The notes below the pieces were generated by a model that was given only the letters and a program-made list of their open reading frames with translations, was not told where the DNA came from and searched no databases. Below are positions 21,228 through 48,139 of a DNA stretch of 64,000 bases, one piece after another (the first letter of the stretch is position 1; every line of letters starts with the position of its first letter). This DNA is from an uncultured bacterium (GTDB lineage: Bacteria; Zixibacteria; MSB-5A5; UBA10806): NCBI GenBank assembly GCA_965541585.1, contig CBEUCH010000002.1:160001-224000 (forward strand), in the 5' to 3' direction. Both the position numbers and the translations under genes were made by a program.

Positions 21228-21976
21228 GGCATCACCTCCGGATCGATGAATTTGGTGATTTCGATGAGGTTGTATTTTTTCTCTCTGTCACCAGAAACAC
21301 CATACATGAATCGTGCATAGATCTGATAATTTCTAATCCTCATTTTGTTCGGTTTATCAACATATTCGAGAAAATAATTAATCTCCTCGTCGATCCGCTT
21401 GAACGCTTTTTCTTTAGCTATCATAAATGACGGCGAGATTTTTTCCACTTCCTTTTGCAAATTCGTCGCGTCGTATCTGAAATCGCCCGGGACAGCCCTG
21501 TAGAAAGAAAGGAATTTACCCAGCCAGCCGGATAAGACGTAGACGGTATCTCCGCGGGCATACTTGACATAGCATTCGCGCCGCCAAACCCCGCTATCGC
21601 CCATCGTAAATTCGTAACCGGTCAAGTTCTCCAGAACGAAATCATCGTAGTAAGTAGCGCGTATATTTCGCGTAAGTAAACTCTCGATCTCGGAAAATTC
21701 CGCATCTGTAAAGTTCGTAGTATCGGCGCCCTCCGGCGATCGGAAGTAATCAGCCGGGCTTTCAGGGTTTTCTCCCCTGGCCCAATCTTGTACTCCTATA
21801 CTAGCAATCGAAGATGGGAATATGCCGAGGTATATTTGCTGACTTCTGGAATATATTCTTATTGGCCCCACTAATCTAAATTCACTCTCACCTGCGTAAA
21901 CTGGTTGTAAAGAGAATAAAAGTAGCTGACCTATTATAATCCAGATTGCCTTATTTGTAAAAAATCGCCTTTTCAT
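21224..21976 (-). CDS. Secreted hypothetical protein 'X2'
   Basis: Signal peptide; paralog of 22780-23523 (QDW, DYFR.P.GADTT, YDDF.LENL.GYE.TMG, YARGDT.YV.SGWLGKFLSFYRAVPG). Confidence 0.8.
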   Translation of the reverse strand: MKRRFFTNKAIWIIIGQLLLFSLQPVYAGESEFRLVGPIRIYSRSQQIYLGIFPSSIASIGVQDWARGENPESPADYFRSPEGADTTNFTDAEFSEIESLLTRNIRATYYDDFVLENLTGYEFTMGDSGVWRRECYVKYARGDTVYVLSGWLGKFLSFYRAVPGDFRYDATNLQKEVEKISPSFMIAKEKAFKRIDEEINYFLEYVDKPNKMRIRNYQIYARFMYGVSGDREKKYNLIEITKFIDPEVMP

Positions 21977-22009
21977 GGCATCACATCCTCATCCATGAAT
22001 CCGGCCTGT

Positions 22010-22783
22010 TTATCTGAGCAGGATCATTTTCCTATCGAACGTTCTATCGGGTGCGGTCATCCTGATCATATAGATGCCTGAGGCGACCGGTTTGCCGGTG
22101 CTGTTTCTGCCGTCCCAGACTGCCACGTGGTATCCGGCCGGCATTACCCCATGGACCGGGACGTCGACCCTTCGCCCGACTATATCGTAGATCACGATTT
22201 TGACCTCCGACTCCTCCGGCAGGCCGAATTTTATGCTGGTCGAAGAATTAAAGGGGTTGGGATAGTTCTTATCCAGAACGTAATCGGCGGGGATGGACAG
22301 CGGGTCTTCCTCCTCCAGGCCGGTAAGAGGCTCGCCTATTACCTCGACCTTCCAGTAATACCAGGTAACGACGCGGTCGGGAAACATATCGAAGCTGTTC
22401 ATGACCCAGGGGCCGTAGGAATCCAGGCCGACGTAATCGTCGAGGTGGCCGGGGCCGTCCACCTCCCTGTCGGTGTCATACCAGAAAAAATACCAGTTCA
22501 CGCGATCCCCGCCCCAGTCGTTGAGCCTGACAGTGGCTCCGCTGGGCGAAAATATGTCGATCCAGACCTGCTCCGCCCAGGCATTGTTTTCATCGGTTCC
22601 GATGGCGATGAAGAAGTTTATATCCTCTATCATGACATGGACCGGCACGAATATGGTATCTGATATGCCGGTGGAATCGAAATCGGGGATCTCCAGGTTG
22701 ACGTCGGACCGATATTCATACCTGTCGCCGTAAGCCGGCGAGGCCAAACGCAATAGCGCCGGTATAATGATTAAATACCTCAT
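22010..22783 (-). CDS. Secreted protein 'P1', near-identical copy of 20454-21227
   Basis: 257 aa; differs from P2 only in the signal peptide and about 5 C-terminal residues. Confidence 0.8.
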   Translation of the reverse strand: MRYLIIIPALLRLASPAYGDRYEYRSDVNLEIPDFDSTGISDTIFVPVHVMIEDINFFIAIGTDENNAWAEQVWIDIFSPSGATVRLNDWGGDRVNWYFFWYDTDREVDGPGHLDDYVGLDSYGPWVMNSFDMFPDRVVTWYYWKVEVIGEPLTGLEEEDPLSIPADYVLDKNYPNPFNSSTSIKFGLPEESEVKIVIYDIVGRRVDVPVHGVMPAGYHVAVWDGRNSTGKPVASGIYMIRMTAPDRTFDRKMILLR

Positions 22784-32421: not shown

Positions 32422-33072
32422 TTATACAATGACAGTTCTGCGTCTGCGAACGGCGACCGTGCCAATCGCCAGTATCAGCAGGGCCATTATTAACATTCCC
32501 CATTGGGAGAGGGTGGGGACGTTATTTTCCTCTTGCACGAATACGAAAAGAGTATCGGATGTGGTAAAAAAGCCACTACCATCTCCGTAAAAGCAGACGG
32601 TATGAAAAGGCAGGATATAGTCGCCGGGTGCTTCGAATAATATTTCGTATTGCAATGATAGCACCTGGCCTGTTCCGACAGTATTGTCGAATGGACCGGG
32701 TTCACCGGGGAAACCAAGTACCCACCTGTACGTATCGAAACAGCGTATCATCTGGTCAGGCAATGCTCCCGAATAATAGAATGAGATCGGAAAGCCGTCG
32801 ATGGCAATATGTGAAGAAACTATAACGAATTCAGGAGGTAAATTTTCAGCCAGATACATGCCCGACAGATGGAACGGTTCACTATTGGCAACAGTCCGGG
32901 TAATCACCAGCGTATCGGAGATCCCCGGGTACGTTGCAGATAATTCATATTCACAGGTAATATCGTAGCCGGATGGATGCAGTGTATCCTGACCGGATGA
33001 GGTGGACGGAAAAAGGATCAGACAACTCGATATATATAATATAGATCTAGTGATCCTGGCCAGCATGGCCAT
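32422..33072 (-). CDS. Secreted Ig-like (DUF11-like) protein with IPTL-CTERM sorting signal
   Basis: Signal peptide; C-terminal VPTLSQWG + TM helix + RRRR; GGAGG SD. Confidence 0.85.
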   Translation of the reverse strand: MAMLARITRSILYISSCLILFPSTSSGQDTLHPSGYDITCEYELSATYPGISDTLVITRTVANSEPFHLSGMYLAENLPPEFVIVSSHIAIDGFPISFYYSGALPDQMIRCFDTYRWVLGFPGEPGPFDNTVGTGQVLSLQYEILFEAPGDYILPFHTVCFYGDGSGFFTTSDTLFVFVQEENNVPTLSQWGMLIMALLILAIGTVAVRRRRTVIV

Positions 33073-33332
33073 TCCTCCGATTTTGCGCCTTTTTCGATTG
33101 ACCGGGAATGATCCTGGACGTTTGCCGAAGTTCTCAACAACTAAGATTCAAACCCCTCCCTTTTAAAATAACCTGCAGACGCCGGACCCTGCAACTGATT
33201 TTTCCGGATTAAATTACCCCTAACGATACGCATCACCTACCGCTTTGGCGCGGAGCGAGGAACCAGCGCAGCGGAAAAGCGGCCGGGTGAATGGCCATGT
33301 CAGGCTACTTGTTCTTCCTGATTACAAGAACT

Positions 33333-34094
33333 TCAGATCTCTGTTTTCACAAAAATATCGCCATAAATAAATCCTTTCCATGATGAAATCTTATTAGGGA
33401 ATAAGTCTAGAAATTCTTCTTTAGCCATCCAGTCGTGACATGCAAACACGAGATTCTCTGCCGGTGTAATATTAATCAGCAGCCTCCCGAAATTTGACAG
33501 ATAATCGATACAAGCAATCGTTTTCGCAACATCACCTTTTTTGCTAAGATGATACTCAAGCGAAATATGTGTAATTGGCTGGCTTAGCCCTCTGAGAACT
33601 TCAAATTCAAATCCTTCCACATCAATCTTAATGTACAAAGGCTTACCATATTTTACTATCATCTCATCTAAAGTAACAATAGAAGCTTCAATGGTTGACT
33701 CAATTCCAACGTTCCAGTCTTCAAGGAAACCAGATTCCCCTCTATCTGCGCGTACATGAAACACACGTTTTTCAGTTTTAGAGCCCAAAGCTAGTTCCGA
33801 TATATTTAGATTTCTATTGTTCCCACATCGCGCTTTTAGTTCCTTTCTACAATCTGGTTGTGGCTCAAATGCAATAACCTTTGCGTCCAACTCTAGAAAT
33901 ATTCTTGTTTTCTCCCCGTAGTTTGCTCCAACGTCGAAAACAAGATCGCCCTTCATTATGAGGTTAGAGTAAAAGGCCAGATCTTTCTTCTCTCGGCGCA
34001 ATTCTTCTCTATGCAAAAAATTCCGATTAAACCATCTTGCCTGCCGATACAAACCGAATCTACGCGAAATGTTCTTTATAATTGTGTAGCTCAT
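33333..34094 (-). CDS. FkbM family methyltransferase
   Basis: FDVGANYG, AFEPQP, TLD, IKIDVEGFEFEVLRG; AT-rich. Confidence 0.9.
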   Translation of the reverse strand: MSYTIIKNISRRFGLYRQARWFNRNFLHREELRREKKDLAFYSNLIMKGDLVFDVGANYGEKTRIFLELDAKVIAFEPQPDCRKELKARCGNNRNLNISELALGSKTEKRVFHVRADRGESGFLEDWNVGIESTIEASIVTLDEMIVKYGKPLYIKIDVEGFEFEVLRGLSQPITHISLEYHLSKKGDVAKTIACIDYLSNFGRLLINITPAENLVFACHDWMAKEEFLDLFPNKISSWKGFIYGDIFVKTEI

Positions 34095-34314
34095 CCGAAA
34101 CTTTTCCTTTTACACTGCGGATGGTCAGCAAGATTGATTTGTTCAGCCTAACATAATATCATACAAATCGCCCTCATATCAAGGTAGTCTACCCGATAGC
34201 AATGTCAACAAGAATCAAGGAAAAAGATAAAATCCTCACCGCGTATCAGCATCTTCTCTTTAAGTAGAAAAAAGACCTATGTGCTTGTATGGTAAAATAT
34301 ACAGATTGTATGGA

Positions 34315-35277
34315 TTATAACCCCAGCGGCGGTTTTCTCAGATATTCCGTAGTTCGCCTTTTCTGATCGATATCGTGCCAGACACGCTCCACCTGTTCCA
34401 CAGTCAAACCCATGACCCCGGCAACTTCTGAAGCCGGGAATCCACCCTCTTTGGCAAGCCATAGATGATCCATGATCGCAAACTCCAGGCCGAAAAAGAA
34501 TTCCTCCTGGCTCACCTCGGATGGATAGGTCTCGGCGGATGGGATTCGTGATCGTATCTTCTCGGAGATATCGAGGTATTCCGCCAGCTGGAAAATCTGA
34601 GTCTTATAGAAACCGACTATCGGTTTGAGATCGACGCCGCCATCGCCGTATTTGACGAAGAATCCCTGGTCGTATTCGTTTTTGTTGGCAGTACCGATCA
34701 CGGCGTAGTTGCGGGATTCAGCGTGGTAATAAAGCGTCAACATCCTGATCCGCTGTTTCATGTTGGAGGCCGCCACAATCTTGAGGAAGGGTTTCAATGG
34801 CAATCGCTTCTCCATTTTCTCACCATCCGGCGATTCCACTGCCAGCCGAAAAACATTGATTCTATCTGACTGGAGTATATTGGATGGCAAAACTATTTTG
34901 GCTTTCCAGCCTTCCACCCATTCGGGGAATACCTGTCTGAAGCCGTCGTCGCGATTCTTATAACATCCTGCGGCCTTAAGCGGCTCGGTGACGTTATTGA
35001 TTTCATATTCGAATCCCATTGTCCTGGCGAGATCGATAGCCAGTTCCGTCGATTCGGGTGAGTTATCCTGGTCGGGCAAGATGAGGCCTCTCACCTTTTC
35101 CGGGCCGAAAGCCTTTACACATAGCGCTGCTACCACGGAAGAGTCGACTCCCCCGGATATTCCCACAATTGCCCCGTGACGTTTAAGCTGCTTAAAAACC
35201 TGGTGTTTTAGTTTCTCGATAATATCGCCGACTACTTTTTGGCAGTCGATCTTTATTAAATCCCTGGAAAACTTCAC
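34315..35277 (-). CDS. nadE: NH3-dependent NAD+ synthetase-like protein (likely a cluster-specific paralog)
   Basis: GISGGVDS, NMKQR.RM..LYYHA, GT.NK.E...GFFVKYGDGG.D, PSAET. Confidence 0.8.
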   Translation of the reverse strand: MKFSRDLIKIDCQKVVGDIIEKLKHQVFKQLKRHGAIVGISGGVDSSVVAALCVKAFGPEKVRGLILPDQDNSPESTELAIDLARTMGFEYEINNVTEPLKAAGCYKNRDDGFRQVFPEWVEGWKAKIVLPSNILQSDRINVFRLAVESPDGEKMEKRLPLKPFLKIVAASNMKQRIRMLTLYYHAESRNYAVIGTANKNEYDQGFFVKYGDGGVDLKPIVGFYKTQIFQLAEYLDISEKIRSRIPSAETYPSEVSQEEFFFGLEFAIMDHLWLAKEGGFPASEVAGVMGLTVEQVERVWHDIDQKRRTTEYLRKPPLGL

Positions 35278-35290
35278 GCCGACAATCCCA

Positions 35291-35539
35291 CTATTTAGAT
35301 TGTTTCTTCTGAATGAATTTTACAAGATTGTTTATCGAATCGAGGTTCTCCGGGACGAGTTCCTCGTCCTCGATCTGGATATGATAATTCTCCTCGAGAA
35401 AGCCTACGAGTTCCAAAACTCCCGTGGAATCGATTATCCCTTTATCCAAAAGGGAATCTGAATCGGTAAGCTCTTCCGGATTCATGCCCAGCATGAAATT
35501 TTCGACAATGAAGTTTCTGATTTCCGCAGGTAGCGCCAA
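35291..35539 (-). CDS. Acyl carrier protein
   Basis: 82 aa, acidic; SLLDKGIIDSTGVLEL (phosphopantetheine Ser), PENLDSI. Confidence 0.9.
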   Translation of the reverse strand: MALPAEIRNFIVENFMLGMNPEELTDSDSLLDKGIIDSTGVLELVGFLEENYHIQIEDEELVPENLDSINNLVKFIQKKQSK

Positions 35540-35751
35540 GATTCCTCCTTAAAAGCCTCTTCGCCCCGATCTGATTTATCGTTCTATTCGAATCCTGTTT
35601 CTACGCCGACGGCCTTAAGCGCTTCAACCGATCAGGTCGGATGGTCGGCAACACCCACATAGAATCGTCGACCCTAATTCGTCGTTCTTTATTAAGTATA
35701 AATAACGCTTTTGTAAATTTAAAAGATCCAATTCCCGAACGATTGGCCATA

Positions 35752-37755
35752 CTATATTCTATCATCCGGTGCCTCCACTGAGGAGTCGTGCCAGACTTTG
35801 AATGAGGCTCTGTCTAAATCTTCGGCGACCGGGAAATTGTCGATAAAACGGTCAATCAGAAGCTGTGTAGACATGATGCCGATAAACGACATGTTATCCT
35901 TGAAAGAGAGATGAGCATGATAAAGCCTGGCGCACTTAGCTTTCAGCCTGGCCACAAAGGCAGGGTTGAAGATCCCCGCTTTTTCCAGAGACGTCTCCGA
36001 TAGCATCTCATCGATGTACGATGGAGAATCCGGTTGAAAGAAGCTGTTGGAGTCCGGGGCCATATAGGGTTGCTTGACCCGTTCGGTAATCTCAGGAGGC
36101 AGCTCTTCTCTCATGGCTTTCTTGAGAACCAGCTTTTCTTTCAGGCCGAGGATTTTGTGCCAGGGAGGGATGCTGGCTCCGAACTCGACGATCCGGTGAT
36201 CCAGAAACGGAAATCGCCCCTCGACGGAGTTGGCGGCTGAGACTCTATCTCCTTGGGAGGAAAGCAGATACCCGGAAAGCAGGGAGCTGGCCTCCAGAAA
36301 TTGAGCCCTTGAGAGATGATGCCATTTGAAAAAGTCCTCGGGGATATATCTCGCGTATGACTCAACGGAGTCGTAATCCCCTATTTGCGTTTTCACATCC
36401 TCAGTAAAATAATCCTTAACCTTGGTGGTCGTGTTTATCCTGGGAATATGAGAGAAATAAAACTTATCGGTTTCCGAAAGGCCGGCCTTGTAAAACGTCT
36501 CCAGGTAGAATCTGGCTCTCGCCGCTGAAAGAGGCAACGTTGGATACAGCCGTCGGAGAAGCGCCGGGCGCCAGGAAGATTCGGGATTCTTTGCCCAGAA
36601 TCTACGAATCAGCGTTTCCTTGAAAATGTCATATCCTGCGAGGATCTCATCGGAACCCTCGCCGGTCAGGACCACCTTGAAATTGTTTCGCCTGACCAGA
36701 CCGGAGAGCATATAAAGCGGCGTGGGGGCGGTTCGCAGGATAGGGCGTTCCGTGTGCCAGATGACTTTCGGGAAATTTTCAGCTATGTCGTGATAGGTGC
36801 ACTCTATTTGATGGTGGTTGGTACCCAGGAATTCCGACATCTGCTTTTGGTAGCCCGATTCATCGTAGGCCTTGTCATGAAAAGCGATGGAGAAGCTCTC
36901 GACTTTGGTGTCGGTGAAGTTTTTTATCAGGGCAGTGGTCGCCGACGAATCCAGCCCGCCGGAGAGGTAGGCCCCAACCGGAACATCCGCCCTCAACCGC
37001 AGCCTGACGGAATCCACCAACAAGGCATGAAGCTCCTCGGCCCAGGAATCGAGGCTTCTTTTATGGTCGAAGCTCTCGGGAAACTCCATCCGCCAATAGC
37101 GGTCGATGTTAACCTTGCCGTCTCTGATATCAATATATGAGCCCGCTTCCAATTCGTTGATGTTCTCAAAAGCAGTCCGCGGCGCCGCCGTTGTCCACCA
37201 GGTGAAAATCTCGTCCAACCCCGATAGATCCAGTCTCCTGGGAATCGAGCTATCACAGAAGATCGATTTTATCTCCGAGGCGAAATAGAAACGACCGTTA
37301 TGAGTGGTGTAGAAAACCGGTCTGATTCCCAGTCTATCCCGGGCGATGAATAGAGACCTCGCCCGCTTATTATAGATGGCAAATGCGAATTGGCCGTTGA
37401 AATGGTTCATGCAGTCTCTGCCCCACTCCTCGTAGGCGTGGACGATCACCTCGGTATCCGATCGGGTCTTAAATTTATGCCCCGATTTTATCAGTTGAGC
37501 GCGCAGTTCTATATAGTTGAATATTTCACCGTTAAATGTAATCCAGACAGTGCCATCTTCGTTGCACAGAGGCTGCGAGCCTGTTTGTAGATCGATGATA
37601 GACAGGCGCGCCTGGCCTAAAACAGATTTATTATCGAGATAGACGCCGAATTCGTCGGGCCCCCGATGGCGGATAATATTGACCATACGCCCGATAAGCT
37701 CTCTATCCGGAGGCGCTTCGCCCCGGAGCTGAAAATATCCCGCTATGCCGCACAT
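35752..37755 (-). CDS. asnB: Asparagine synthase (glutamine-hydrolysing) family amidotransferase
   Basis: MCGIAG, HRGPD, RLSIID, NGEIFN, LSGGLDSS, TGEGSDE, E.RFPFLD. Confidence 0.92.
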   Translation of the reverse strand: MCGIAGYFQLRGEAPPDRELIGRMVNIIRHRGPDEFGVYLDNKSVLGQARLSIIDLQTGSQPLCNEDGTVWITFNGEIFNYIELRAQLIKSGHKFKTRSDTEVIVHAYEEWGRDCMNHFNGQFAFAIYNKRARSLFIARDRLGIRPVFYTTHNGRFYFASEIKSIFCDSSIPRRLDLSGLDEIFTWWTTAAPRTAFENINELEAGSYIDIRDGKVNIDRYWRMEFPESFDHKRSLDSWAEELHALLVDSVRLRLRADVPVGAYLSGGLDSSATTALIKNFTDTKVESFSIAFHDKAYDESGYQKQMSEFLGTNHHQIECTYHDIAENFPKVIWHTERPILRTAPTPLYMLSGLVRRNNFKVVLTGEGSDEILAGYDIFKETLIRRFWAKNPESSWRPALLRRLYPTLPLSAARARFYLETFYKAGLSETDKFYFSHIPRINTTTKVKDYFTEDVKTQIGDYDSVESYARYIPEDFFKWHHLSRAQFLEASSLLSGYLLSSQGDRVSAANSVEGRFPFLDHRIVEFGASIPPWHKILGLKEKLVLKKAMREELPPEITERVKQPYMAPDSNSFFQPDSPSYIDEMLSETSLEKAGIFNPAFVARLKAKCARLYHAHLSFKDNMSFIGIMSTQLLIDRFIDNFPVAEDLDRASFKVWHDSSVEAPDDRI

Positions 37756-37840
37756 AATATGGTTCTAAACCGCAACAGAAATGATCTCTGCTTCCTCCTT
37801 GATTATCGGGACCGAAAAGAACGATCGATGCGAATCCCGG

Positions 37841-39361
37841 CTATTTCTTCAATATCTTCCCGGATTCTGATTTTGGAAGGTTTGCAACCATTTCGATATA
37901 TTTGGGCACCATCAAATCCTCGAGATTATCCCGGCAGTGATGAAAAATATCATCGATCGATATTTTTGATCCATCGCGGACTACAACTTCGGCTTTGATG
38001 GCATTGCCCAGGATTTCATCCGGAACTGCAGTCACCCTGGCATCGACCACGTCCTCGATCTGATAAAGAACGTTCTCGATTTCCTTCGGGGATACTCTTT
38101 CTCCACGGCTTTTTATAATATCGTCCATGCGCCCCATGAAATACAGAAATCCATCTTTATCGATTCTAAATAGATCGCCCGTATGAAGCGCTTTCTCCCA
38201 GGGGAATTTTCCCGGCTTGAGTACTTTCGCAGTGCCCTCCGGGTCGTTCCAGTAACCCCGCATGACATTCGATCCTCTGACGACCAGCTCTCCCGTAGCA
38301 TCGCGCTCCCGGATATTGCCTTTGTCGTCTATCACATAAACCTCGGTATTGGGCATGGCTATGCCGACCGAGTCCGGCTTCCTGTCGACCAGATCCGGAG
38401 GCAGGTACGAGACCCGCTTACATTCGGTCAGGCCGTACATGGAATATACTTTTGCACTGGGGAAAATTTTCTTGAGCCTGGGGAAATAGCTTGGCGGCAA
38501 CGCCGCTCCTGTATTGCTTATATACCGGACACTTGTCAGATCCTTCTTTCCCAGACCCTCCATCTGCAGGAATATGGCCATCATGGTCGGAACGCAGGGG
38601 AGTCCCGTGATCCGTCTGGCCTGGATTAATTTTATCAGCTTGAACGGATAGCCGAATTTCTTTTCCAGCACCACGGTGCCGGAGAAAAGAAATGACATCA
38701 GCACCTGATACAGGCCGTAATCGAAAGATAAGGGCAAGACGCAAAGGACTATATCGGAGGTCACATTCTCCAGATATTGCGTAATGGACTTAGCGGCGGT
38801 CACCATATTACGATGGGAGAGGGTTACGCCCTTGGGATCGCCGGTTGATCCCGAGGTGTAGATTATTGCCGCCAGATCGAGATCGATGATGCGGAGATCG
38901 GGGAGCTGCGAATCCTGTTCGATAACTTCATGGAAAGCAATGCCCGCCTGCGAGTCTTTATCTATGGTCAAGATGGGCGGAAGATCGATCTGTTTTTTAA
39001 GTTCATTGAGCATCTCGATTTTGGAATTATCGGTTACGATGAAGGCTGGAGAACAGTCTTTCAAGATATACGAGAATTTATTGGACTTGATGGTCTGATT
39101 TACGACCGAGAAAGCTCCTCCGGCCAACAAGGTTCCGAAAATCGAGATGACTGTCTCCGGACTGTTTTCAAGGTAAGTTATTACGCGATCGCCTTTTTTT
39201 ATCCCGTTTTTAAGGAGAAAGGCAGCCAGGTTATGAGAATACCTGTCCAATTGGCTATAGGTGTAAGTATCGTCCCCGAAATACAGAGCGGTCTTATCCG
39301 GATACTCCCTCGCAGATTCCAACAGGAAATCACTTAGTAGATTAGCATTCATCTTTACCAT
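37841..39361 (-). CDS. AMP-dependent acyl-CoA/acyl-ACP ligase
   Basis: YTSGSTGDPKG, LPLSFDYGL, MYGLTE, HTGDL, GR.DD.IK..G.R.SP.EIE, LPK..SGK. Confidence 0.92.
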   Translation of the reverse strand: MVKMNANLLSDFLLESAREYPDKTALYFGDDTYTYSQLDRYSHNLAAFLLKNGIKKGDRVITYLENSPETVISIFGTLLAGGAFSVVNQTIKSNKFSYILKDCSPAFIVTDNSKIEMLNELKKQIDLPPILTIDKDSQAGIAFHEVIEQDSQLPDLRIIDLDLAAIIYTSGSTGDPKGVTLSHRNMVTAAKSITQYLENVTSDIVLCVLPLSFDYGLYQVLMSFLFSGTVVLEKKFGYPFKLIKLIQARRITGLPCVPTMMAIFLQMEGLGKKDLTSVRYISNTGAALPPSYFPRLKKIFPSAKVYSMYGLTECKRVSYLPPDLVDRKPDSVGIAMPNTEVYVIDDKGNIRERDATGELVVRGSNVMRGYWNDPEGTAKVLKPGKFPWEKALHTGDLFRIDKDGFLYFMGRMDDIIKSRGERVSPKEIENVLYQIEDVVDARVTAVPDEILGNAIKAEVVVRDGSKISIDDIFHHCRDNLEDLMVPKYIEMVANLPKSESGKILKK

Positions 39362-39731
39362 CTTAAAAAGACAATAGCCTCCGCTCGAAAAAACATTCGG
39401 CAGCCAAAATAAACCAATCCGCAGTCAGTGTCAATTTCAAATTTCCCCCGACTATGCTGCCAATATATTCTTAATCGGGAAAAAATGACCGCCGCTTTAT
39501 TCAGAATCGATGTAGATGAAGTCTTGCCTGCTGCTAAGTGGACTGGGAATCGAGGAGGACGACCAACCCTCGCCGATTAAAGGCACGGCAAATCTGCGGA
39601 TTAAGGTTATCGATTCGTTAACCTCCCCCCAATATTCCGCTTTGTTTATTGCATCCCTGGCTATATAATAGGCATGTTTTTGCCGATTACTCTGGTGGAA
39701 TATTTGCAGGGCGAGTTTTAAGGAGGTTTCG

Positions 39732-40655
39732 TTGAGATATCTGGTTACGGGCGGGGCCGGGTTTATCGGCTCCAATATAGTCAAAGGGCTGGTTGAAAGA
39801 GGATACCGGGTCAGGGTTCTGGATAACTTTGCCACGGGCCAGCGATCCAATATCGAACCCTACCTCAAGGATATCGAGCTTATAGAGGGAGACATACGCG
39901 ACTTCTGGACGGTTGTTAAAGCCACCAAGGGTATCGACTATATCCTCCACCAGGCAGCCCTGCCATCGGTGCCGCGTTCGATCGACAACCCCCTGACCAC
40001 CACCGAGGTGAATATCAACGGCACGTTGAATGTCCTCGAGGCGGCGCGGTTTAACGAGGTCCAGCGGATAGTCTACGCTTCCTCCTCGTCGGTATACGGC
40101 GATTCCCCCGAAATGCCGAAAAAGGAGGAGATGAAGCCGATGCCCAAATCTCCTTATGCCATAACCAAACTGGCCGGTGAGGAATATTGCATGAGTTTCC
40201 ATAATCTTTACGGTCTGGAGACGGTAGCTCTGAGGTATTTCAACGTCTTCGGCCCCCGGCAAAATCCTTTTTCCCAGTATTCCGCGGTGATTCCCAAATT
40301 CATCAACATGCTGAAAAGCGGGCAAAACCCGACCATCTGGGGAGACGGCAGCACGTCGAGAGATTTCACCTATATTGACAACGTGGTTCAGGCAAACATA
40401 CTGGCGTGCGAGAAAAAGGCCGCCGCGGGCTTCGTGATAAATATTGCCTGCAATAAAGCGTTCACGCTAAACGAACTGGTGGAGAAACTCAACGACATCA
40501 TGGGCCTCGACATTAAACCAACTCATGGTCCTGATAAAATCGGCGATGTAAAACACTCGCTGGCTGATATCAAGAAAGCCAATAGTATACTCGGCTACGC
40601 TCCCGAAATTGATTTTGGCGAGGGCCTGAAAAAGACGGTTGAATGGTTCGGCTAA
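39732..40655 (+). CDS. NAD-dependent nucleotide-sugar epimerase (WbpP/TviC-like)
   Basis: TGGAGFIGS, HQAALPSVPRSI, YASSSSVYG, SPYAITK, LRYFNVFGPRQ, SRDFTY. Confidence 0.92.
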   Translation: MRYLVTGGAGFIGSNIVKGLVERGYRVRVLDNFATGQRSNIEPYLKDIELIEGDIRDFWTVVKATKGIDYILHQAALPSVPRSIDNPLTTTEVNINGTLNVLEAARFNEVQRIVYASSSSVYGDSPEMPKKEEMKPMPKSPYAITKLAGEEYCMSFHNLYGLETVALRYFNVFGPRQNPFSQYSAVIPKFINMLKSGQNPTIWGDGSTSRDFTYIDNVVQANILACEKKAAAGFVINIACNKAFTLNELVEKLNDIMGLDIKPTHGPDKIGDVKHSLADIKKANSILGYAPEIDFGEGLKKTVEWFG

Positions 40656-40711
40656 TTCGGCATCCGGTCTGAAATCATTAATGAGGTCGCTGAATTTCCC
40701 GGTGGGTTCTC

Positions 40712-41725
40712 ATGACTAATCGTGCAGAATATAAATGGCCGCAGATCAGCGTAATTATCCCGGTCCGCAACGAGGAAGAATTCATCGGCCGGACTCTGCA
40801 ATATCTAATCGGGCAAGACTATCCACGGGAAAAATTAGAGATAATTGTCGTAGATGGCCGTTCCGATGACGCCACCCGCCGGATCGTCGAAGATATGGCT
40901 GCGAGTGACGCTTGCGTCAAACTCCTGGACAACCCGAAGATAATATCGTCTGCTGCAAGGAATGCAGGCGTGAAAGCCGCTAAGGGAGATATTGTGACTT
41001 TCGTAGACGGTCACGTTTATATCGATAATGATCAGCTTTTGAGGAACACGGCCATCCTGATGAATGAAAAAGAAGTGGATGTATTGAGTCGGCCACAGTT
41101 TCTCGATACGCCTGATAACCGATTTTTCCAGAGAGCTGTTGCCCTGGCAAGAAAATCGGTATTCGGGCATGGCCTCGATTCCACCATATACCTTGAAGAG
41201 GATAAATTCGTCGACCCGACATCATCTGGTGCAAGCTATAATAAAGATATCTTTGATCAAGTTGGTTATTTCGACGAGAGTTTTGACGCCGCCGAGGACC
41301 TCGATTTTAATCACCGGGCAGGCCGAGCGGGTTTCAAATCGTTCAGCTCGAGTAAGCTAGCGGTTTATTATTTTCCGAGGAGAACCCTTAGAGATCTCTT
41401 CAAACAGATGGTGAGATATGGGATAGGCCGTTTTCGGTTTCTAAAAAAGCATCGTAAGGGAGTCTCGTCCGGGGCATTGCTCCTGGCGCTGTTTTATGTC
41501 GGGTTGATTTTGCTGGTGCTCCTATCGATCCTCTCAAACCGCTTGCTCCAGGTCGCAGGATTACTCCTCGCTCTTTATATTGCGGCCAACCTCATCAGCA
41601 GCCTGGTTACGGCCTTGAAGAAAGGTCTCAAATACATGCTGGTTTTACCGGTAATATACATGACAATCCATTCTGGTCTGGTCTGGGGAATTATCAGCGA
41701 GGCTCTTAGATCGCTTAGAAGATAG
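40712..41725 (+). CDS. Glycosyltransferase family 2 (ExoA-like)
   Basis: IIPVRNEE, VVDG.SDD.T, VDGH, AEDLDFN.R, C-terminal TM helices. Confidence 0.88.
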   Translation: MTNRAEYKWPQISVIIPVRNEEEFIGRTLQYLIGQDYPREKLEIIVVDGRSDDATRRIVEDMAASDACVKLLDNPKIISSAARNAGVKAAKGDIVTFVDGHVYIDNDQLLRNTAILMNEKEVDVLSRPQFLDTPDNRFFQRAVALARKSVFGHGLDSTIYLEEDKFVDPTSSGASYNKDIFDQVGYFDESFDAAEDLDFNHRAGRAGFKSFSSSKLAVYYFPRRTLRDLFKQMVRYGIGRFRFLKKHRKGVSSGALLLALFYVGLILLVLLSILSNRLLQVAGLLLALYIAANLISSLVTALKKGLKYMLVLPVIYMTIHSGLVWGIISEALRSLRR

Positions 41726-41759
41726 AACTCGATGAAGTACAAAAAAACTTAAGTTGGCT

Positions 41760-42386
41760 CTAATCGAACTGCAGGTGGTTATAGATTTCTTCAACGAAAG
41801 ATTTTTCGAAATCATCCAACGCTGAAAGGCCGGCCCGGTCGCCGGCGCCCATAATGCGAATAAAGGCTATATCATTGGGTTTGAATGTCAGCGAACTTAT
41901 CAATGTGTAAATCTTAAATGTGTAATCGTTGGCGGTTTCACCATAGCGGGTGATATACCAGAAATCCATAACCCTTTTCGATTCCCCCATTCTCAAGTCG
42001 AACCTGCCGATAGTTATTGGCCGACCCTTAAGGATAATTTCCCGTTTTTCCACTCCCCGTATTGTCCAGCCCGATCCCGGCAGACAATTCCTCGGTGAAT
42101 GAGGCCCGCCGCGAGAGTCTCGCTGCGCGAAATAGTCGAAAAAGAGATGCACCTTGTTTCCCAGCGCATCAGTATAAGTTGCCGAGAAGATCTCTGTAGG
42201 ATTCAGCATGGCAACAATGGCCGGTATGAGGTTGTCTTTTTGTCCAGACCAGCCGTCCTTTTGAAGAGGGAAATCCTCGATGCTTGCACCGGTTGAACTC
42301 TCAGGTTGATAATGTCTTATTGCGAAACCGGATAAGAACGTGAGAATCACAACGGATAAGAATGCTATGAACGATTTTCCAACCAT
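41760..42386 (-). CDS. epsI: Exosortase-associated protein EpsI
   Basis: FP....W.G, PHSPRNCLPGSGW, FWY; directly downstream of exosortase. Confidence 0.88.
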   Translation of the reverse strand: MVGKSFIAFLSVVILTFLSGFAIRHYQPESSTGASIEDFPLQKDGWSGQKDNLIPAIVAMLNPTEIFSATYTDALGNKVHLFFDYFAQRDSRGGPHSPRNCLPGSGWTIRGVEKREIILKGRPITIGRFDLRMGESKRVMDFWYITRYGETANDYTFKIYTLISSLTFKPNDIAFIRIMGAGDRAGLSALDDFEKSFVEEIYNHLQFD

Positions 42387-43216
42387 TTCAGAAACGCTCC
42401 TGTAATTATCACAAGGATTATGGCAACTGTAAACACCAGAAGCCCGGATATTTCGTGAAGGAAACTTTCTGCCAAATCAGCGCTTATGGCATACGCCCCG
42501 ACGGCGGTGAATGTCAGCCTGAAAATGTTTGATATGATGGCAATTGGTATTGCTGCAAGGAACAGGATTACCGGCCGGATCTTCCCCGGAAGGACCAGAT
42601 ATCCATATAGTGCGCTTAATGCTGACAGCGTCGCCAGGCTCCTGAGACCGCTGCAGGCCTCGACCACCTCCAGAGTATATTGAGGAAGATATATTATATT
42701 ACCCTGCCTGACCGACGGTACCCCTATTACCTGAAGTATGAAACCGGTGACCTTGCTTGAAAACAGCTGCATGGGAACAGTGGCGGAATAGTAGATCACG
42801 GCGGGGATCGGAACCATAAATATCAAAAAGAAAAAGGCAAACCAGACCTTCCTGAAATTCTCAAGCCCCAGGTGGTAAAGTGAAATTCCGGAGATAATCA
42901 CCCAAAAAGACATTCTGGTTGTAAAAAATTCGCCGGCCGCGATGGCCAGTATCAATCCCAGACAACCGAGCCCGAATACGAATATCCCCCATCCGCTTGC
43001 CCTGGCGGGAAAAACCAGCTCTTTTCTTTTTCTCCAGAATAGAAATATGGCCACCGGAATAATTAGAAAGCCATGGGAATAATTCGGGTCATAATACCAG
43101 TCAGCGATCATTGCTTTAAGTATCGATAGATTAATAAGGACTGTGATCGCAATCAATATATAAGGATACTTATGTGATTTTAGATGAGCCGCTAAGGCAC
43201 TACCATTTAAATTCAA
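42365..43216 (-). CDS. Exosortase (EpsH family)
   Basis: W..DPNYSHG.LI, FMVPIP, GN.I, VVEACSGLRS (Cys), N..R, H...G. Confidence 0.93.
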   Translation of the reverse strand: MNLNGSALAAHLKSHKYPYILIAITVLINLSILKAMIADWYYDPNYSHGFLIIPVAIFLFWRKRKELVFPARASGWGIFVFGLGCLGLILAIAAGEFFTTRMSFWVIISGISLYHLGLENFRKVWFAFFFLIFMVPIPAVIYYSATVPMQLFSSKVTGFILQVIGVPSVRQGNIIYLPQYTLEVVEACSGLRSLATLSALSALYGYLVLPGKIRPVILFLAAIPIAIISNIFRLTFTAVGAYAISADLAESFLHEISGLLVFTVAIILVIITGAFLKWLENRS

Positions 43217-43531
43217 CCAGTTCCCCTTTCTTAATATTAATCGTAAGATAATACCCGCGGTTTAATTTATCAATCGAACATTCATAAATCGGGGGCGTCA
43301 CGATCTCAGCTATCGGGACGATAAATATGCGTAGCGGGAAACATCCGAGCGCCGGGGGCATTTTATTGTAAGATGATAAGTTATGACTGATGCGGACAGG
43401 TGGAAAGAGACGATCCCCGACCGCCGCGGGGATTTCTAGAGTTGGTTTTTTGATCTGATATGATGCTCTTAGTCTTGTGCAGGAGAATGCGCTAATTCGT
43501 GACGAGGCCTATAGTTCGATGAATGTTTGAC

Positions 43532-43560
43532 TTGACTATGAGAAGATATTGATATATAAT
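43532..43560 (+). promoter_or_regulatory. Sigma70-type promoter, ~190 nt upstream of the GNAT gene
   Basis: TTGACT-17nt-TATAAT. Confidence 0.55.
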
Positions 43561-43757
43561 GAATCTGCGATGCAATCATGCTCTCAGGGGGCGATGATGC
43601 TTCTTGTCTTCGAGAAATCGAATAAATCGGTGGAGGATACTGGCTAGTTTACCCGTAAGGCTGATAAATATTTGGAACATTGCCCCGGTTATGGTGGTTG
43701 GTATTGTTCCATAATTAATCGATGGTTAAATAATACAAAAAGGATGACTGGCTTCAT

Positions 43758-44945
43758 ATGCGAGATAATACCGCAATATCGCAAGAGACAATGGAGAGAG
43801 GCCAATTAAGAATAGAATTGGTTCAATCGCTTGAAGGACTCGCTGCTCACGTGGATGCCTGGGATCGATTGGCTTTGGAGGCTCCTCAAAATCTGCCGGC
43901 GATTTCATCGGCCTGGGTAACAGCTTTTTATGAGCACCAGCTTCAGAAATCGGAATCCTGGTGTTGCTTTTTTGTATACGACAGGAAGGATCTGGTTGGT
44001 GTTCTCCCCATTGTGATAACGCCGAATCGTTTGCTGGGATTGAAACGTCCGCGCTTGCGAACTCCTCAGAATAACCATGTTTATTCGGTCGATTTCGTCG
44101 TAGCCGGGGGGAGGGAAAGCGAAATCATCCCATATCTTTTATCGGCAGTTGATCGGGTCGAACCCTCGAGGTTTTGCCTGGGCTTGATCCGCCTGCCAGA
44201 TACATCACCCACATTGTCGGTTCTTGAAAGTGGCGTTGCGGGGATGTCTGTCGTTAGAGAATATGACGGCAAGGGTTCATACGTCAGCGTCATAGGAAAC
44301 TATGGCGAGTATCGTTCGCGGCTCAGCATCAACTTCAGAAATAATCTGCGAAAAATGAAAAACAAGATATCGCGCCTTCCCAACGTAAAGACGGTTTTCC
44401 TTTCGGGGACAGAGGCTACAGAGAAAGACCTCCAGCACTTTCTGGAGGTTGAAGCCTCCGGCTGGAAAGGGAGAGGCGGGTCAGCGATATTGATGTCCCC
44501 CTCGTTGAGTGCATTTTACCGTAGCATTGTCAGGCGGCTGGCAAGGCTCGGTTGGCTCGAATGGCACTTCCTTCAGACTGAGGAGAAGATTATTGCCGCG
44601 CAACTCGCGGTAAAAATGGGTCGCACCCTGACAGTGGTGAAGATCGGATATGATGAAGAATACGCCTGGTGTTCTCCCGGAAATTATCTTTTTGAACGCA
44701 CCGTGGAGCGTGCCTTCGAATCCGGCGATACCGATGACATAAATTGCCTTACCGACATGCCGTGGCATAGGAAATGGAAGATGAAACAAAGGGACTACTA
44801 CAACCTCTGGATCTACCCGCGTCGACCGATTCCTTTATTATTTGGTGCCGGTGGCAGAAAAATCAAAAATGCCCTGCGCAGGACCCCGGGATTGTTACCG
44901 CTTTACCATGGCCTGCGGGGGTTGGCAAAAGGAGAACGGTCATAA
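43758..44945 (+). CDS. GNAT family acyltransferase (CelD/BcsL-like, Acetyltransf_6)
   Basis: WDRL, LVGVLP, FRNNLRK, EASGWKG..G, FYR, KIGYDEEY...SPG. Confidence 0.85.
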   Translation: MRDNTAISQETMERGQLRIELVQSLEGLAAHVDAWDRLALEAPQNLPAISSAWVTAFYEHQLQKSESWCCFFVYDRKDLVGVLPIVITPNRLLGLKRPRLRTPQNNHVYSVDFVVAGGRESEIIPYLLSAVDRVEPSRFCLGLIRLPDTSPTLSVLESGVAGMSVVREYDGKGSYVSVIGNYGEYRSRLSINFRNNLRKMKNKISRLPNVKTVFLSGTEATEKDLQHFLEVEASGWKGRGGSAILMSPSLSAFYRSIVRRLARLGWLEWHFLQTEEKIIAAQLAVKMGRTLTVVKIGYDEEYAWCSPGNYLFERTVERAFESGDTDDINCLTDMPWHRKWKMKQRDYYNLWIYPRRPIPLLFGAGGRKIKNALRRTPGLLPLYHGLRGLAKGERS

Positions 44946-45952
44946 ACCAACTATCAATCTCGACCATTATCCCGACCTACAACCGCGCGCAACTTATTGA
45001 AAGAGCGGTGTCGTCGGCTCTGGCGCAGTGCGTCCCGGGTGATGAGGTTATTGTAGTCGATGATGGTTCCACTGACAATACCGAGGGAATCCTTGCTGCC
45101 TACCTGGATCGTCTGCGTTTCATAAAAATACCTAATTCGGGGGCCGGCGTAGCGCGGAATCGAGGGGTCCGGGAATCAAAAAACGACCTTGTAGCGTTTC
45201 TCGATTCGGACGATGAATGGATGCCGGGTAAGCTTGAACTTCAGCGCAACCTGATGCAGGCGAGACCTGATATCCTGTTTTGCTTCAGCGACTTTGCCGG
45301 ACGCGCCCGAGATGGCCGGGAACACCGTCATTACCTGGCAAGATGGCATGATGATTTGCGTAGCTGGGATGAGATCCTCGGCCCCGGTGCGCTCTATTCT
45401 TCCATTGCCAGCCTGCCGGCTGGCATTGATGACTTCAACTTTCATGTGGGCGATCTTTATTTATTGGAACTGACCGCCAACTATATATTCACTGGCACAC
45501 TGGTTGTCCGTCGCCAGGAAGCCCAGAAGAGCCTTCATTTTGGAGAAGGGCTTCCGACATATGAGGACTGGGAATGCTTTGGACGGCTGGCTAAGCATGG
45601 TTTGGGAGCATACTTAGACTGCGAAACTGCCTGGCAGATTTCGCATGATGGGTGGAGGCTTACGGATGCCGATGTTGCAACCAACGCCGGTACCCGCATG
45701 ATCTTAATAAAACGAGTCTGGGGTGCAGATCCCGAATTTATGGATAAGCACGGCGATCTCTACCGCAAAACAACAACCGAGCAACGATTGCTCAAAATCA
45801 AAGGTCTCATCTCCCAGGGGCGCACGAAAGAAGCCGGGTCTGAACTGAAAGAGGTGGAATCGGCGCCCGGCTTATATCGATTGCTCGCCGCATTGCCCGG
45901 CCCATTTGTCCGCGGTCTTGTCGGATTGCGCCGCAAAATAAAAGATACATAA
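44942..45952 (+). CDS. Glycosyltransferase family 2; probable start is the ATA at 44942
   Basis: IIPTYNRA, VVDDGSTD, ARNRG, FLDSDD.W, EDW. Confidence 0.85.
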   Translation: MNQLSISTIIPTYNRAQLIERAVSSALAQCVPGDEVIVVDDGSTDNTEGILAAYLDRLRFIKIPNSGAGVARNRGVRESKNDLVAFLDSDDEWMPGKLELQRNLMQARPDILFCFSDFAGRARDGREHRHYLARWHDDLRSWDEILGPGALYSSIASLPAGIDDFNFHVGDLYLLELTANYIFTGTLVVRRQEAQKSLHFGEGLPTYEDWECFGRLAKHGLGAYLDCETAWQISHDGWRLTDADVATNAGTRMILIKRVWGADPEFMDKHGDLYRKTTTEQRLLKIKGLISQGRTKEAGSELKEVESAPGLYRLLAALPGPFVRGLVGLRRKIKDT

Positions 45953-46212
45953 TGACATGTTCTGCCCGGGATCTGAGTACTGGCTGAAATTCTTCGTGGG
46001 AATTCGAGGTAGTCTGTTGAGCCATTGGAACCTGCTCCGGAAATCAAATGTAAATCATTGATTAATGGAGGAATAACACGATAATTGAAAACTATTTAAA
46101 TAGCCATTTCATAAATGCCGATTATAATATAATAGCGATGCGATCCGAATTGTCAGGGTAAGTGAACGAGAGCGGCCGCCAGCCGCATCTGTTCATGGTC
46201 AGGATTTGAATT

Positions 46213-47049
46213 ATGAAAAATAAAAGAAAGGCGCTGATCTCTCTGGTTTTTTGCCTCAGTATTTCCGGGTATTCAGCGGCACAGGAGACTCTCTATCCTG
46301 CAGGGCATAATATAGCCGTCACCTATGAGTTGTCATCCGTTGATCTGGAAATAGGGGATACCCTGATGGTGAGCAGGACCATCACGAATAACGAGAGTTT
46401 TGGCCTTACTAACCTGTATCTGGCCGAGAATCTGCCTTTCGAGTTCAGCATCTCCGTGTACTCCCTGAGAATCGATGGAGCAGCGGTCCCGCATGCCTAT
46501 TCAGGGCCTTCCGGGGGCGAGATCTTCCCATCCTACAATTCGTACAGGTGGGTTATAGACGATCCGGCGCCGGGCGATACAGCGAATCGGGTTCTAACGC
46601 CCGGAGAATCGCTTGTGCTGGAATACTCAGTCACCTGCGCCACGGTCGGCAATTATGCTTTGCCCTTCCATACCATGTGCGTTTACGGAGATACATCGGG
46701 TATCTTTACGGTTGCGGATAGCCTGACGGTCACTTTTTCACCCAGTTCCCGGATAAGCGAAGAGCCTGTTTTATTTCCTGAAAGCTCGAACATTCCCCGG
46801 GCCTATCCAAATCCCTTTAACAGCGAAGTGGTCATCGATCTCGGCAACCTTGAACTCCCTGATGATCCGGTGAGATTTACCGTTTACAGTCTGATGGGTG
46901 ATGAGGTTTTTAAAGGTGAATACGTTTTGGCTGCCAACATGCACCGGATACACTGGCGCCCGGAAAATAATATTGCAGCCGGAGTTTATTTTTATAGATT
47001 ACAGGCAGAGGTTATGGTAATTACCGGCAAGGTGACATTTTTGAAATGA
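46213..47049 (+). CDS. Secreted Ig-like protein with T9SS/FlgD-type C-terminal domain; paralog of 32422-33072
   Basis: Signal peptide; shared YLAENLP, IDG, YSG, YRWV, Y.LPFHT.C.YGD.SG; tail AYPNPFN...AGVYFYRL...GKVTFLK. Confidence 0.85.
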   Translation: MKNKRKALISLVFCLSISGYSAAQETLYPAGHNIAVTYELSSVDLEIGDTLMVSRTITNNESFGLTNLYLAENLPFEFSISVYSLRIDGAAVPHAYSGPSGGEIFPSYNSYRWVIDDPAPGDTANRVLTPGESLVLEYSVTCATVGNYALPFHTMCVYGDTSGIFTVADSLTVTFSPSSRISEEPVLFPESSNIPRAYPNPFNSEVVIDLGNLELPDDPVRFTVYSLMGDEVFKGEYVLAANMHRIHWRPENNIAAGVYFYRLQAEVMVITGKVTFLK

Positions 47050-47068: not shown

Positions 47069-48139
47069 GTGAGTATGCTTATTATGAAAAGGATGATGTT
47101 GATAATATCGGCGTTCTTGCTGGGCAGCTTTTCCGCCGGGGCCGAAGAGGTTCGGGTTTCGGTCATATTCGTGCACTATTCTGTCGGGACCACTATAGTT
47201 TCTCAATCATTGAATCCCGGCAGCCAGCATATTCGGGATACTCTCAATATTCCGCCGGTTGTGGTGGATAACGATACGGCAAGAATAGTCTTTAGAAGTT
47301 ACAGGATGAATAATGAAATGGGAGGAACACCCCTGAGCGATACCGTCTCGGACCAGTCGGGATGGGATTACAGATTCCAGAATTACCGTTACGAATATTT
47401 CGATCCCTGGCATAACAGGATGAGAATATGGAATAGTGATAATGGTATGAATGGTAATGCCTTTGCAGGATTGTTGAATGATCTGTTTGATATTCCAGAT
47501 AAGGAAGATTCGGCATTTTGGAGGGCCTTTACCACACATAACGTACCGGGTTCGTCGGGGGACTCCGTCGTAGAAAAATATGATCTGTTCATGGTCAAGA
47601 ATCCTTACGGGTGCTGGGTTTGCATGACACAGCCGCAAGCCGACAGCCAGAGGACACTATTTCAGATCGTGGCCGATTCCATGGCCAATCACCCGGAGCA
47701 GAATTTTGCGCTTATATTCGGCACGCCGCTCCGGCTCTCGGAGCAGGGTTGCGGGGGTGATTCGTCGAACGCCAGGATAACCTACGAGCTGGCCACCTGG
47801 TTTGCGGACACCTTCGATGTTTCCGGCTATGACAACGTCTGGAAGTATGAATTTTTCAGGACCCTCTGTGAAACGAGCCCGGACAGCGCAAATAGATACT
47901 GTTTAAAGGAAATATACTTCGATGGATGGGGCGGCTCTCACTTAGGCCATGACGGTTCGGATTTAGCTCAGGACAGCCTGGTTGCTTTTACTCGCAGGGC
48001 GACGGCAGATATTCTGGCCATGCGAAGCGGCCTCGTGACGATGCGGGACATCGACCTGAAAATTATAGAATTCAGAGAGGGCTCCGCCACTGTTCAAGAA
48101 GTACTTGAGCTTATCGAGCGGTATAATAGCGGTAATTAG
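47069..48139 (+). CDS. Secreted hypothetical protein (possibly SGNH-like fold)
   Basis: Signal peptide; VIFVHYSVG near N-terminus, GGSHL near C-terminus. Confidence 0.6.
   Translation: MSMLIMKRMMLIISAFLLGSFSAGAEEVRVSVIFVHYSVGTTIVSQSLNPGSQHIRDTLNIPPVVVDNDTARIVFRSYRMNNEMGGTPLSDTVSDQSGWDYRFQNYRYEYFDPWHNRMRIWNSDNGMNGNAFAGLLNDLFDIPDKEDSAFWRAFTTHNVPGSSGDSVVEKYDLFMVKNPYGCWVCMTQPQADSQRTLFQIVADSMANHPEQNFALIFGTPLRLSEQGCGGDSSNARITYELATWFADTFDVSGYDNVWKYEFFRTLCETSPDSANRYCLKEIYFDGWGGSHLGHDGSDLAQDSLVAFTRRATADILAMRSGLVTMRDIDLKIIEFREGSATVQEVLELIERYNSGN

Follow-up and report, generated by a model that had tools for sequence, protein, structure and literature searches.

A small domain carried on exchangeable sorting tails in and beside a Zixibacteria polysaccharide locus

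The region from 32,422 to 47,049 of the window (G000:C2:160001-224000, the whole stretch of 64,000 nucleotides that was analysed, from the 3.5 Mb genome G000 of an uncultured Zixibacteria bacterium, rated 98% complete) raises the question of whether a polysaccharide locus sends one protein domain along two export routes by means of a dedicated pair of genes. Genes A and B, at the two ends of this region, carry the same small domain on different C-terminal tails, an IPTL-CTERM exosortase signal in A and a type IX secretion system (T9SS) type A C-terminal domain (CTD) in B, and a sequence-only reading had taken them for an undescribed system encoded by the locus. We favour, with a probability of about 0.62, the reading that B, as T9SS cargo, serves the polysaccharide locus as an accessory at the cell surface, and that A is a re-tagged duplicate on which exosortase H (XrtH) acts, the two genes using genome-wide routes and not forming a two-part system of the locus. 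Both genes consist of the following parts.

32422-33072, minus strand: gene A, 216 amino acids (aa), with signal-peptide-like N-terminus, shared domain and IPTL-CTERM tail (open reading frame (ORF), BLASTP and hidden Markov models (HMMs); signal peptide by eye)
32533-32991, minus strand: shared CnaA/DUF11-like domain of A, about residues 28-180 (alignment, model and hhalign)
32437-32520, minus strand: IPTL-CTERM sorting tail of A, residues 185-212 (TIGR04174, PF18203)
46213-47049, plus strand: gene B, 278 aa, with signal-peptide-like N-terminus, shared domain and T9SS type A CTD (ORF, BLASTP and HMMs)
46282-46746, plus strand: shared domain of B, residues 24-178, for which an all-beta sandwich of CnaA type is predicted and in which Y38, E72 and H153 are conserved (model, VIA-align and hhalign)
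46804-47046, plus strand: T9SS type A CTD of B, residues 198-278 (TIGR04183 and a CTD profile from the same genome)

By sequence, the two genes are paralogues that share one small domain: residues 25-177 of A align with residues 21-173 of B at 69/154 identities (45%, E 2e-41; BLASTP), which bears out the likeness noticed earlier behind their signal peptides, and they hold the sole copies of this domain in the source genome. The C-terminus of A has the IPTL motif, the hydrophobic helix and the basic cluster, and it exceeds the cut-offs of TIGR04174 (32.6 bits against 20.5) and PF18203 (26.0 against 20.8), as had been proposed. The tail of B had been called T9SS/FlgD-type, and only the T9SS part of this name stands: the tail passes TIGR04183 narrowly (24.1 against 23), stays below the cut-off of PF18962 (21.9 against 27) and matches a CTD profile made from the source genome at E 6e-17, while four near full-length homologues of B reach 30-48 bits on TIGR04183; a FlgD-type tail was rejected, with no match to PF13860 (FlgD_ig). 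The N-terminus of B is, by eye, basic and hydrophobic ahead of the conserved domain start. In both proteins the shared domain begins with Gln directly after the apparent signal peptide, as it does in 22 of 65 homologues, and by analogy with Bacteroidota this residue could become pyroglutamate in the mature proteins.

Pfam and NCBIfam scans place the region in a polysaccharide cluster in which an EpsH-type exosortase and EpsI stand among glycosyltransferases, a flippase, an O-antigen ligase, an amidotransferase, an acyl-CoA ligase and a carrier protein. The pair had been described as lying inside an exosortase-exopolysaccharide locus; this is right for B; A is found 13 kb off, on the opposite strand and only at the far edge of the locus, after the last gene of a leftward operon. 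The two exosortase components are:

42365-43216, minus strand: EpsH-type exosortase of the polysaccharide locus (TIGR02602 197.8 against a cut-off of 105.55; no TIGR04177 match)
41760-42386, minus strand: EpsI-family exosortase partner (TIGR02914 90.7 against a cut-off of 42.8)

The presence of EpsH and EpsI among polysaccharide genes resembles the PEP-CTERM/EpsH exosortase loci described by Haft et al. 2006 (PMC1569441). Unlike the loci described there, the source genome has a single PEP-CTERM protein, on another contig (G000:C12:19760-20476, 238 aa), which is likely the substrate of the locus exosortase. A PEP-CTERM tail is absent from A and B alike, and with the sole genome match on contig C12 both were rejected as PEP-CTERM substrates of that enzyme.

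For both tails the export machines are encoded in the genome (XrtH; SprA, PorU and PorV), in agreement with the proposal of one immunoglobulin-like domain on two recognised sorting tails. XrtH is a second, short exosortase (G000:C2:145339-145863; TIGR04177 97.6 against a cut-off of 86), encoded with its associated membrane protein beside another IPTL gene. When 25 related genomes were searched for both, IPTL tails were present in the same 12 genomes as XrtH over cut-off, and genome G003 has an EpsH-type exosortase near its CTD copy with neither IPTL nor XrtH. Because of this agreement in 25/25 genomes and the state of G003, the tail of A likely belongs to XrtH; the EpsH-type exosortase of the locus is likely not its enzyme and was ruled out as such on the co-distribution of IPTL with XrtH. 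The arrangement shares with the exosortase H/IPTL-CTERM system (TIGR04177, TIGR04174, PF18203, NF041730) the motif, helix and basic cluster of A and the encoded XrtH and membrane protein; it differs in that XrtH lies 47 kb from A and is distinct from the polysaccharide-locus exosortase.

The T9SS core genes looked for were found in part, with SprA (700.6 against a cut-off of 200), PorU (687.3 against 420) and eight PorV-family ORFs over cut-off in the source genome. The CTD of B is like at least 150 others there (TIGR04183 matches among 150 of 187 candidates scored; 186 by the own-genome CTD profile), as expected of T9SS type A cargo (TIGR04183; SprA, PorV, PorU). Across the genome, C16:24023-29923 and C11:27512-34170 included, SprA, PorU and many PorV-family genes accompany about 186 CTD proteins. 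One PorV-family gene, after PorU (G000:C11:31579-34170), encodes an 863-aa protein whose match is interrupted by an insert of about 530 aa, one part covering model positions 1-40 and the other 40-324. According to PMC11205867, type A cargo that PorU has cleaved can stay anchored at the surface, which makes the proposed contrast between a cell-anchored A and a secreted B unsafe, and it was not established.

Similar exchanges were looked for over the whole genome. IPTL-CTERM proteins number 33, with 32 HMM matches and one more from a further profile search; once the tails are removed, 21 match a CTD-tailed protein (E <1e-5) and 12 have no match, and 14, the A/B pair included, have IPTL/CTD paralogues over more than 60% of both bodies. 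Re-tagging between IPTL and CTD is routine in the source genome, and the idea that the A/B pair is unique to this locus is ruled out by the CTD-tailed paralogues of 21/33 IPTL proteins. Families whose members exchange GlyGly-CTERM, LPXTG and PEP-CTERM tails are described by Haft and Varghese 2011 (PMC3237569), and the present case is alike in placing alternative sorting tails on one family. It is unlike those families in that the exchange involves a sortase tail for the inner membrane, a domain for secretion across the outer membrane and a dockerin, with the alternatives coexisting in one genome. The two-tail pair is ordinary for its lineage, and sorting-tail exchange is an already known pattern that is genome-wide here.

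The same holds beyond this genome, where the proposed recurrence of tail swapping was borne out for tails in general and hardly for this pair of tails. A domain profile search matched 49 of 285 Zixibacteria genomes, 43 of them at E <1e-10, and the six weak ones were set aside. Outside G000, the tails of 67 strong homologues comprise 31 CTD, 17 dockerin-like, 13 one-strand stubs, two IPTL, one with HYR repeats and CTD, and three truncated; the labels of eleven rows were changed on visual inspection, and of five dockerin-like locus proteins scanned, four were confirmed by PF00404. Among 150 cluster representatives listed, the 130 with a full domain carry 53 CTD, 32 dockerin-like, 12 stub, seven IPTL, two helical and 24 other tails, the last including an SLH-bearing protein. 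A word-index search found only seven close CTD-tailed relatives, and a back-translated genome scan gave three matches over the shared domain and the remainder over the CTD. Two or three copies of the domain are present in 19/43 genomes and a single copy in 24/43; no tail is repeated among the complete copies of any of the 19 multi-copy genomes. When tails were shuffled, a mean of 10.4 and a maximum of 17 genomes were non-repeating, and 19 was reached in 0/20,000 draws, related genomes not being independent. The combination of CTD and IPTL occurs in only 2/43 genomes (G000 and G002, one genus). What is conserved appears to be the same domain with a different address, and not the pair of IPTL and T9SS tails.

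The tree of the domain holds 84 rows, with two short rows left out and only the IPTL, helical-tail and outgroup representatives added. All ten IPTL copies, whose sequences are intact, form one branch (support 98/86); its placement as sister to the group of B is not well supported (96/70) and the deeper order is poorly resolved. Over all groups the tree requires 19 tail changes. Several independent gains of dockerins are not claimed: the tree suggests seven changes, yet the approximately unbiased test does not reject a single clade (p-AU 0.22). The stub tails (L057:9688-10257, L058:206-799 and 11 further homologues) consist of D..PP..I.DL only, and 11 of the 13 end within seven residues of the motif. 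In neighbouring proteins this motif is the opening strand of a longer domain of FN3-like fold. The stub is possibly a donor strand or a sorting motif.

Linkage to polysaccharide loci was scored with the polysaccharide proteins of the window as markers, at least two being required within 10 kb, and the counts are lower bounds because many contigs are short. The expected linkage of homologues to exosortase and exopolysaccharide loci is confirmed for the CTD copies (22/31, against a baseline in G000 of 5/186 CTD genes), with an exosortase or EpsI near 11/31 of them; it largely fails for the second copy (dockerin 4/17, stub 1/13, IPTL 0/2; baseline 1/33 IPTL genes).

The model of the shared domain, built with a 13-row alignment, is all beta with a predicted local distance difference test (pLDDT) score of 91.5. 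In VIA-align, where all fold matches share 6-15% identity, pilin domains of Gram-positive bacteria fit best (SpaD: Z 13.9, root-mean-square deviation (rmsd) 2.8, 141 aligned), while cohesin 2vo8 reaches Z 11.1 and the CLIPPER domain 9IFR 10.2; Foldseek gave weak matches of the same kinds. With hhalign the domain matches seven DUF11-type repeats cut from search matches (probability 93%, E 3e-7, 84 columns), and Atlas matches to DUF11 clusters at 0.86 serve as a lead only. Neither A nor B matches the DUF11 models (PF01345, TIGR01451) or, at E 0.001, the cohesin family PF00963; one homologue scores 24.0 on the DUF11 model against a cut-off of 24, and the other homologues are below. CLIPPER domains are described in PMC12617251 as having a Lys-Asn bond with a catalytic Asp, some members being without the bond. 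Of 65 aligned copies of our domain, 59 have Tyr in the isopeptide Lys column and not one has Lys; 63 have Glu or Asp in the acidic column, and 60 a late-strand His, with no conserved late Asn. The domain is thus predicted to be CLIPPER-like (a CnaA/DUF11-type sandwich), not a member by score, and likely to be without an isopeptide bond. From the alignment we infer that the late-strand His takes the place of the isopeptide Asn. An isopeptide-bonded stalk domain was rejected on the absence of Lys in 65/65 copies. No catalytic motif was recognised; the domain is likely non-catalytic, and fold likeness by itself shows no function. With DUF11/CLIPPER (PF01345, TIGR01451; PDB 9IFR; PMC12617251) it shares the predicted CnaA-type sandwich and varied sorting domains; it differs in being about 155 aa long and usually single and N-terminal, not a repeated stalk, with Tyr in the Lys column, the acid kept and a late His. 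It is unlike cohesins in having no cohesin family match and in being fitted better by pilin CnaA domains (Z 13.9 vs 11.1).

Most of the CTD copies have, besides, an enzyme-like neighbour, which in the window is gene C.

47069-48139, plus strand: gene C, 356 aa, 19 bp after B, a predicted divergent SGNH-fold esterase/acyltransferase body with a helical tail (model pLDDT 80.6, VIA-align)
48014-48133, plus strand: two-helix C-terminal tail of gene C, about 38 aa, consensus R.DID.KI..FR.G.AT..EV..LI..YN.G (alignment and model)

Neither gene C nor its helical tail matches a Pfam or NCBIfam model. The model of gene C aligns with a carbohydrate esterase in VIA-align (Z 12.0, rmsd 4.0, 200 aligned), Foldseek gave no match at E <0.001, and its prediction as a divergent SGNH-fold esterase/acyltransferase draws on VIA-align and an Atlas lead below 0.9; a Ser and a His are invariant in 18/18 sequences. 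The tail is present in 45/285 genomes (single in 43) and C-terminal in 120/120 among the protein matches listed, and 113 tail-bearing bodies fall into clusters of 79 (some PF04015/DUF362), 27 (SGNH-like), four, two and one. In place of gene C, some CTD copies are followed by proteins of about 445 aa such as L071:8044-9387 and its relatives, which have a twin-arginine-like N-terminus (by eye), are in some cases annotated as DUF362 and end in the same helical tail. The tail is likely a further exchangeable address tag.

Under the preferred reading, B would use Sec to pass the inner membrane and a T9SS of the SprA/PorV/PorU type to pass the outer one, shed its CTD and be displayed on or released at the surface, where it would serve the polysaccharide coat in a binding or structural role together with its co-transcribed, enzyme-like neighbour C. 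A would derive from one duplication and tail replacement in an XrtH-bearing lineage, and its IPTL helix would retain it in the inner membrane; after cleavage by XrtH it would either become lipid-linked or be set free in the periplasm. In other lineages the second copy has a dockerin or a one-strand stub instead. Homology, the identity of the tails, the presence of both machines and the genomic context are direct observations, and the export, cleavage and location steps are drawn from known systems as described in PMC11205867, PMC1569441 and bioRxiv 10.64898/2025.12.21.693542. Several points weigh against this reading. The GldK (PorK) and GldM (PorM) models had no match in the 98% complete genome, with no control genome over either cut-off and PorL and PorN not searched; T9SS function is unproven for this reason, and the system, which differs here from those of type A cargo, possibly works without the known ring and motor. 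The CTD score of B itself is marginal. The tails that never repeat in the 19/19 multi-copy genomes look like selection, though kin are not independent. Moreover, A is the only one of the 33 IPTL genes near polysaccharide markers, and its position, which is kept within the genus, may not be accidental because its G002 orthologue also adjoins an NAD-synthase-like gene.

An unlikely but far-reaching alternative is that the isopeptide-less CLIPPER-like domain could be the socket of an undescribed Zixibacteria polysaccharide-locus system, binding the 38-aa two-helix tail of the neighbouring SGNH-like, DUF362 or other protein in the manner of cohesin and dockerin, with its own tail (CTD for T9SS, a dockerin, IPTL for exosortase H or SLH for the S-layer) setting the envelope layer to which the enzyme is tethered. 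The gene right after the CTD copy bears the helical tail in 19/31 cases and one of two unrelated bodies in 24/31, against 0/13 stub, 0/2 IPTL and 2/17 dockerin copies. Domain and tail, found in 43 and 45 genomes, co-occur in 36, and in two distant homologues (P0151 and P0154) the tail is fused straight to the shared domain; its constant C-terminal position on five body clusters and the cohesin among the fold matches point the same way. The co-occurrence, however, could equally reflect one common polysaccharide locus. Seven genomes have the domain only and nine the tail with no strong domain match, a divergent domain being near in only two of the nine; the stub and most dockerin copies are without a tailed neighbour, the pilin domains fit better than cohesins, and an SGNH-like orthologue in G097 has a dockerin where the helical tail would be, which fits an ordinary address tag read by another receptor. 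The likeness to cohesin-dockerin adaptor scaffoldins (a small beta-sandwich with interchangeable anchors beside enzyme-like proteins sharing a short helical tail) is a lead only, and unlike dockerins the helical tail has, as read from the alignment, no Asp-rich calcium loops.

Two further explanations concern the pair itself. That the second copies are dispensable by-products of tail-cassette recombination without a distinct role would suit the frequent tail exchange in the source genome, the 24/43 single-copy genomes and the 19 tail changes of the tree; we consider it quite improbable, as the IPTL copies form one branch of ten intact sequences, stub and dockerin copies have been kept in several families and no genome has two complete copies with the same tail. 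About as improbable, in our view, is the dedicated two-route scaffold pair, in which the locus exosortase would anchor A, T9SS would deliver B and both would work together on the polysaccharide matrix. B does lie within the cluster and A at its border, the linkage of B is conserved, the position of A is kept in G002 and the genome offers the locus exosortase only one PEP-CTERM protein. Yet IPTL follows XrtH in every genome compared, the swapping is genome-wide, and the pair is confined to 2/43 genomes: G011 and G018 have XrtH and IPTL proteins with only a CTD copy of the domain found, and in G010 only an IPTL copy was found, outside any polysaccharide locus, the assemblies of all three being fragmented. 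The claim of an undescribed system encoded by the locus is likewise not supported, with XrtH outside the locus, paralogue pairs common (21/33) and the non-CTD copies mostly elsewhere; none of our results supports the scaffold role that had been suggested for the polysaccharide matrix.

One domain of 155 aa on at least four tails is a natural reporter series for comparing placement by XrtH, by a T9SS with no motor genes detected and by dockerins, and it is a CLIPPER relative with conserved Tyr, Glu/Asp and His in place of the isopeptide residues. The helical tail, for which no family model exists, may serve as an address tag of a new kind or else be what the domain binds, and were the latter true the two would be a new attachment pair of cohesin-dockerin type; what most deserves following is this tail, with its close coupling to the CTD copy. 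In the literature checked, which covered few subscription papers, IPTL-CTERM is not mentioned in the part of the exosortase papers seen, only epsSMASH is relevant to XrtH, and no paper was found on Zixibacteria with type IX secretion or on Zixibacteria with dockerin.

The operon next to gene A (34315-39361, minus strand) encodes an acyl-CoA ligase, an asparagine-synthase-like amidotransferase, an 82-aa carrier-like protein (35291-35539) and an NAD-synthase-like protein, and it recurs in related loci. Its NAD-synthase-like gene is the end nearest to A, and the gene adjoining the G002 orthologue of A lies near a contig end. An FkbM methyltransferase (33333-34094, minus strand) intervenes between this gene and A; its absence at the same place in G002 suggests that it is an inserted cassette. 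After the methyltransferase and upstream of A lies an imperfect, single-copy hairpin (33218-33306), which we take to resemble an integron attC site; as a candidate attC it was rejected, the folding not being significant (z -1.3). Promoter and terminator scans gave nothing diagnostic. Elsewhere in the window (20454-22783, minus strand), two CTD/FlgD-tailed ORFs of 257 aa, 1556 bp apart with near-identical domain scores and a 250-aa ORF between them, are an apparent tandem duplication.

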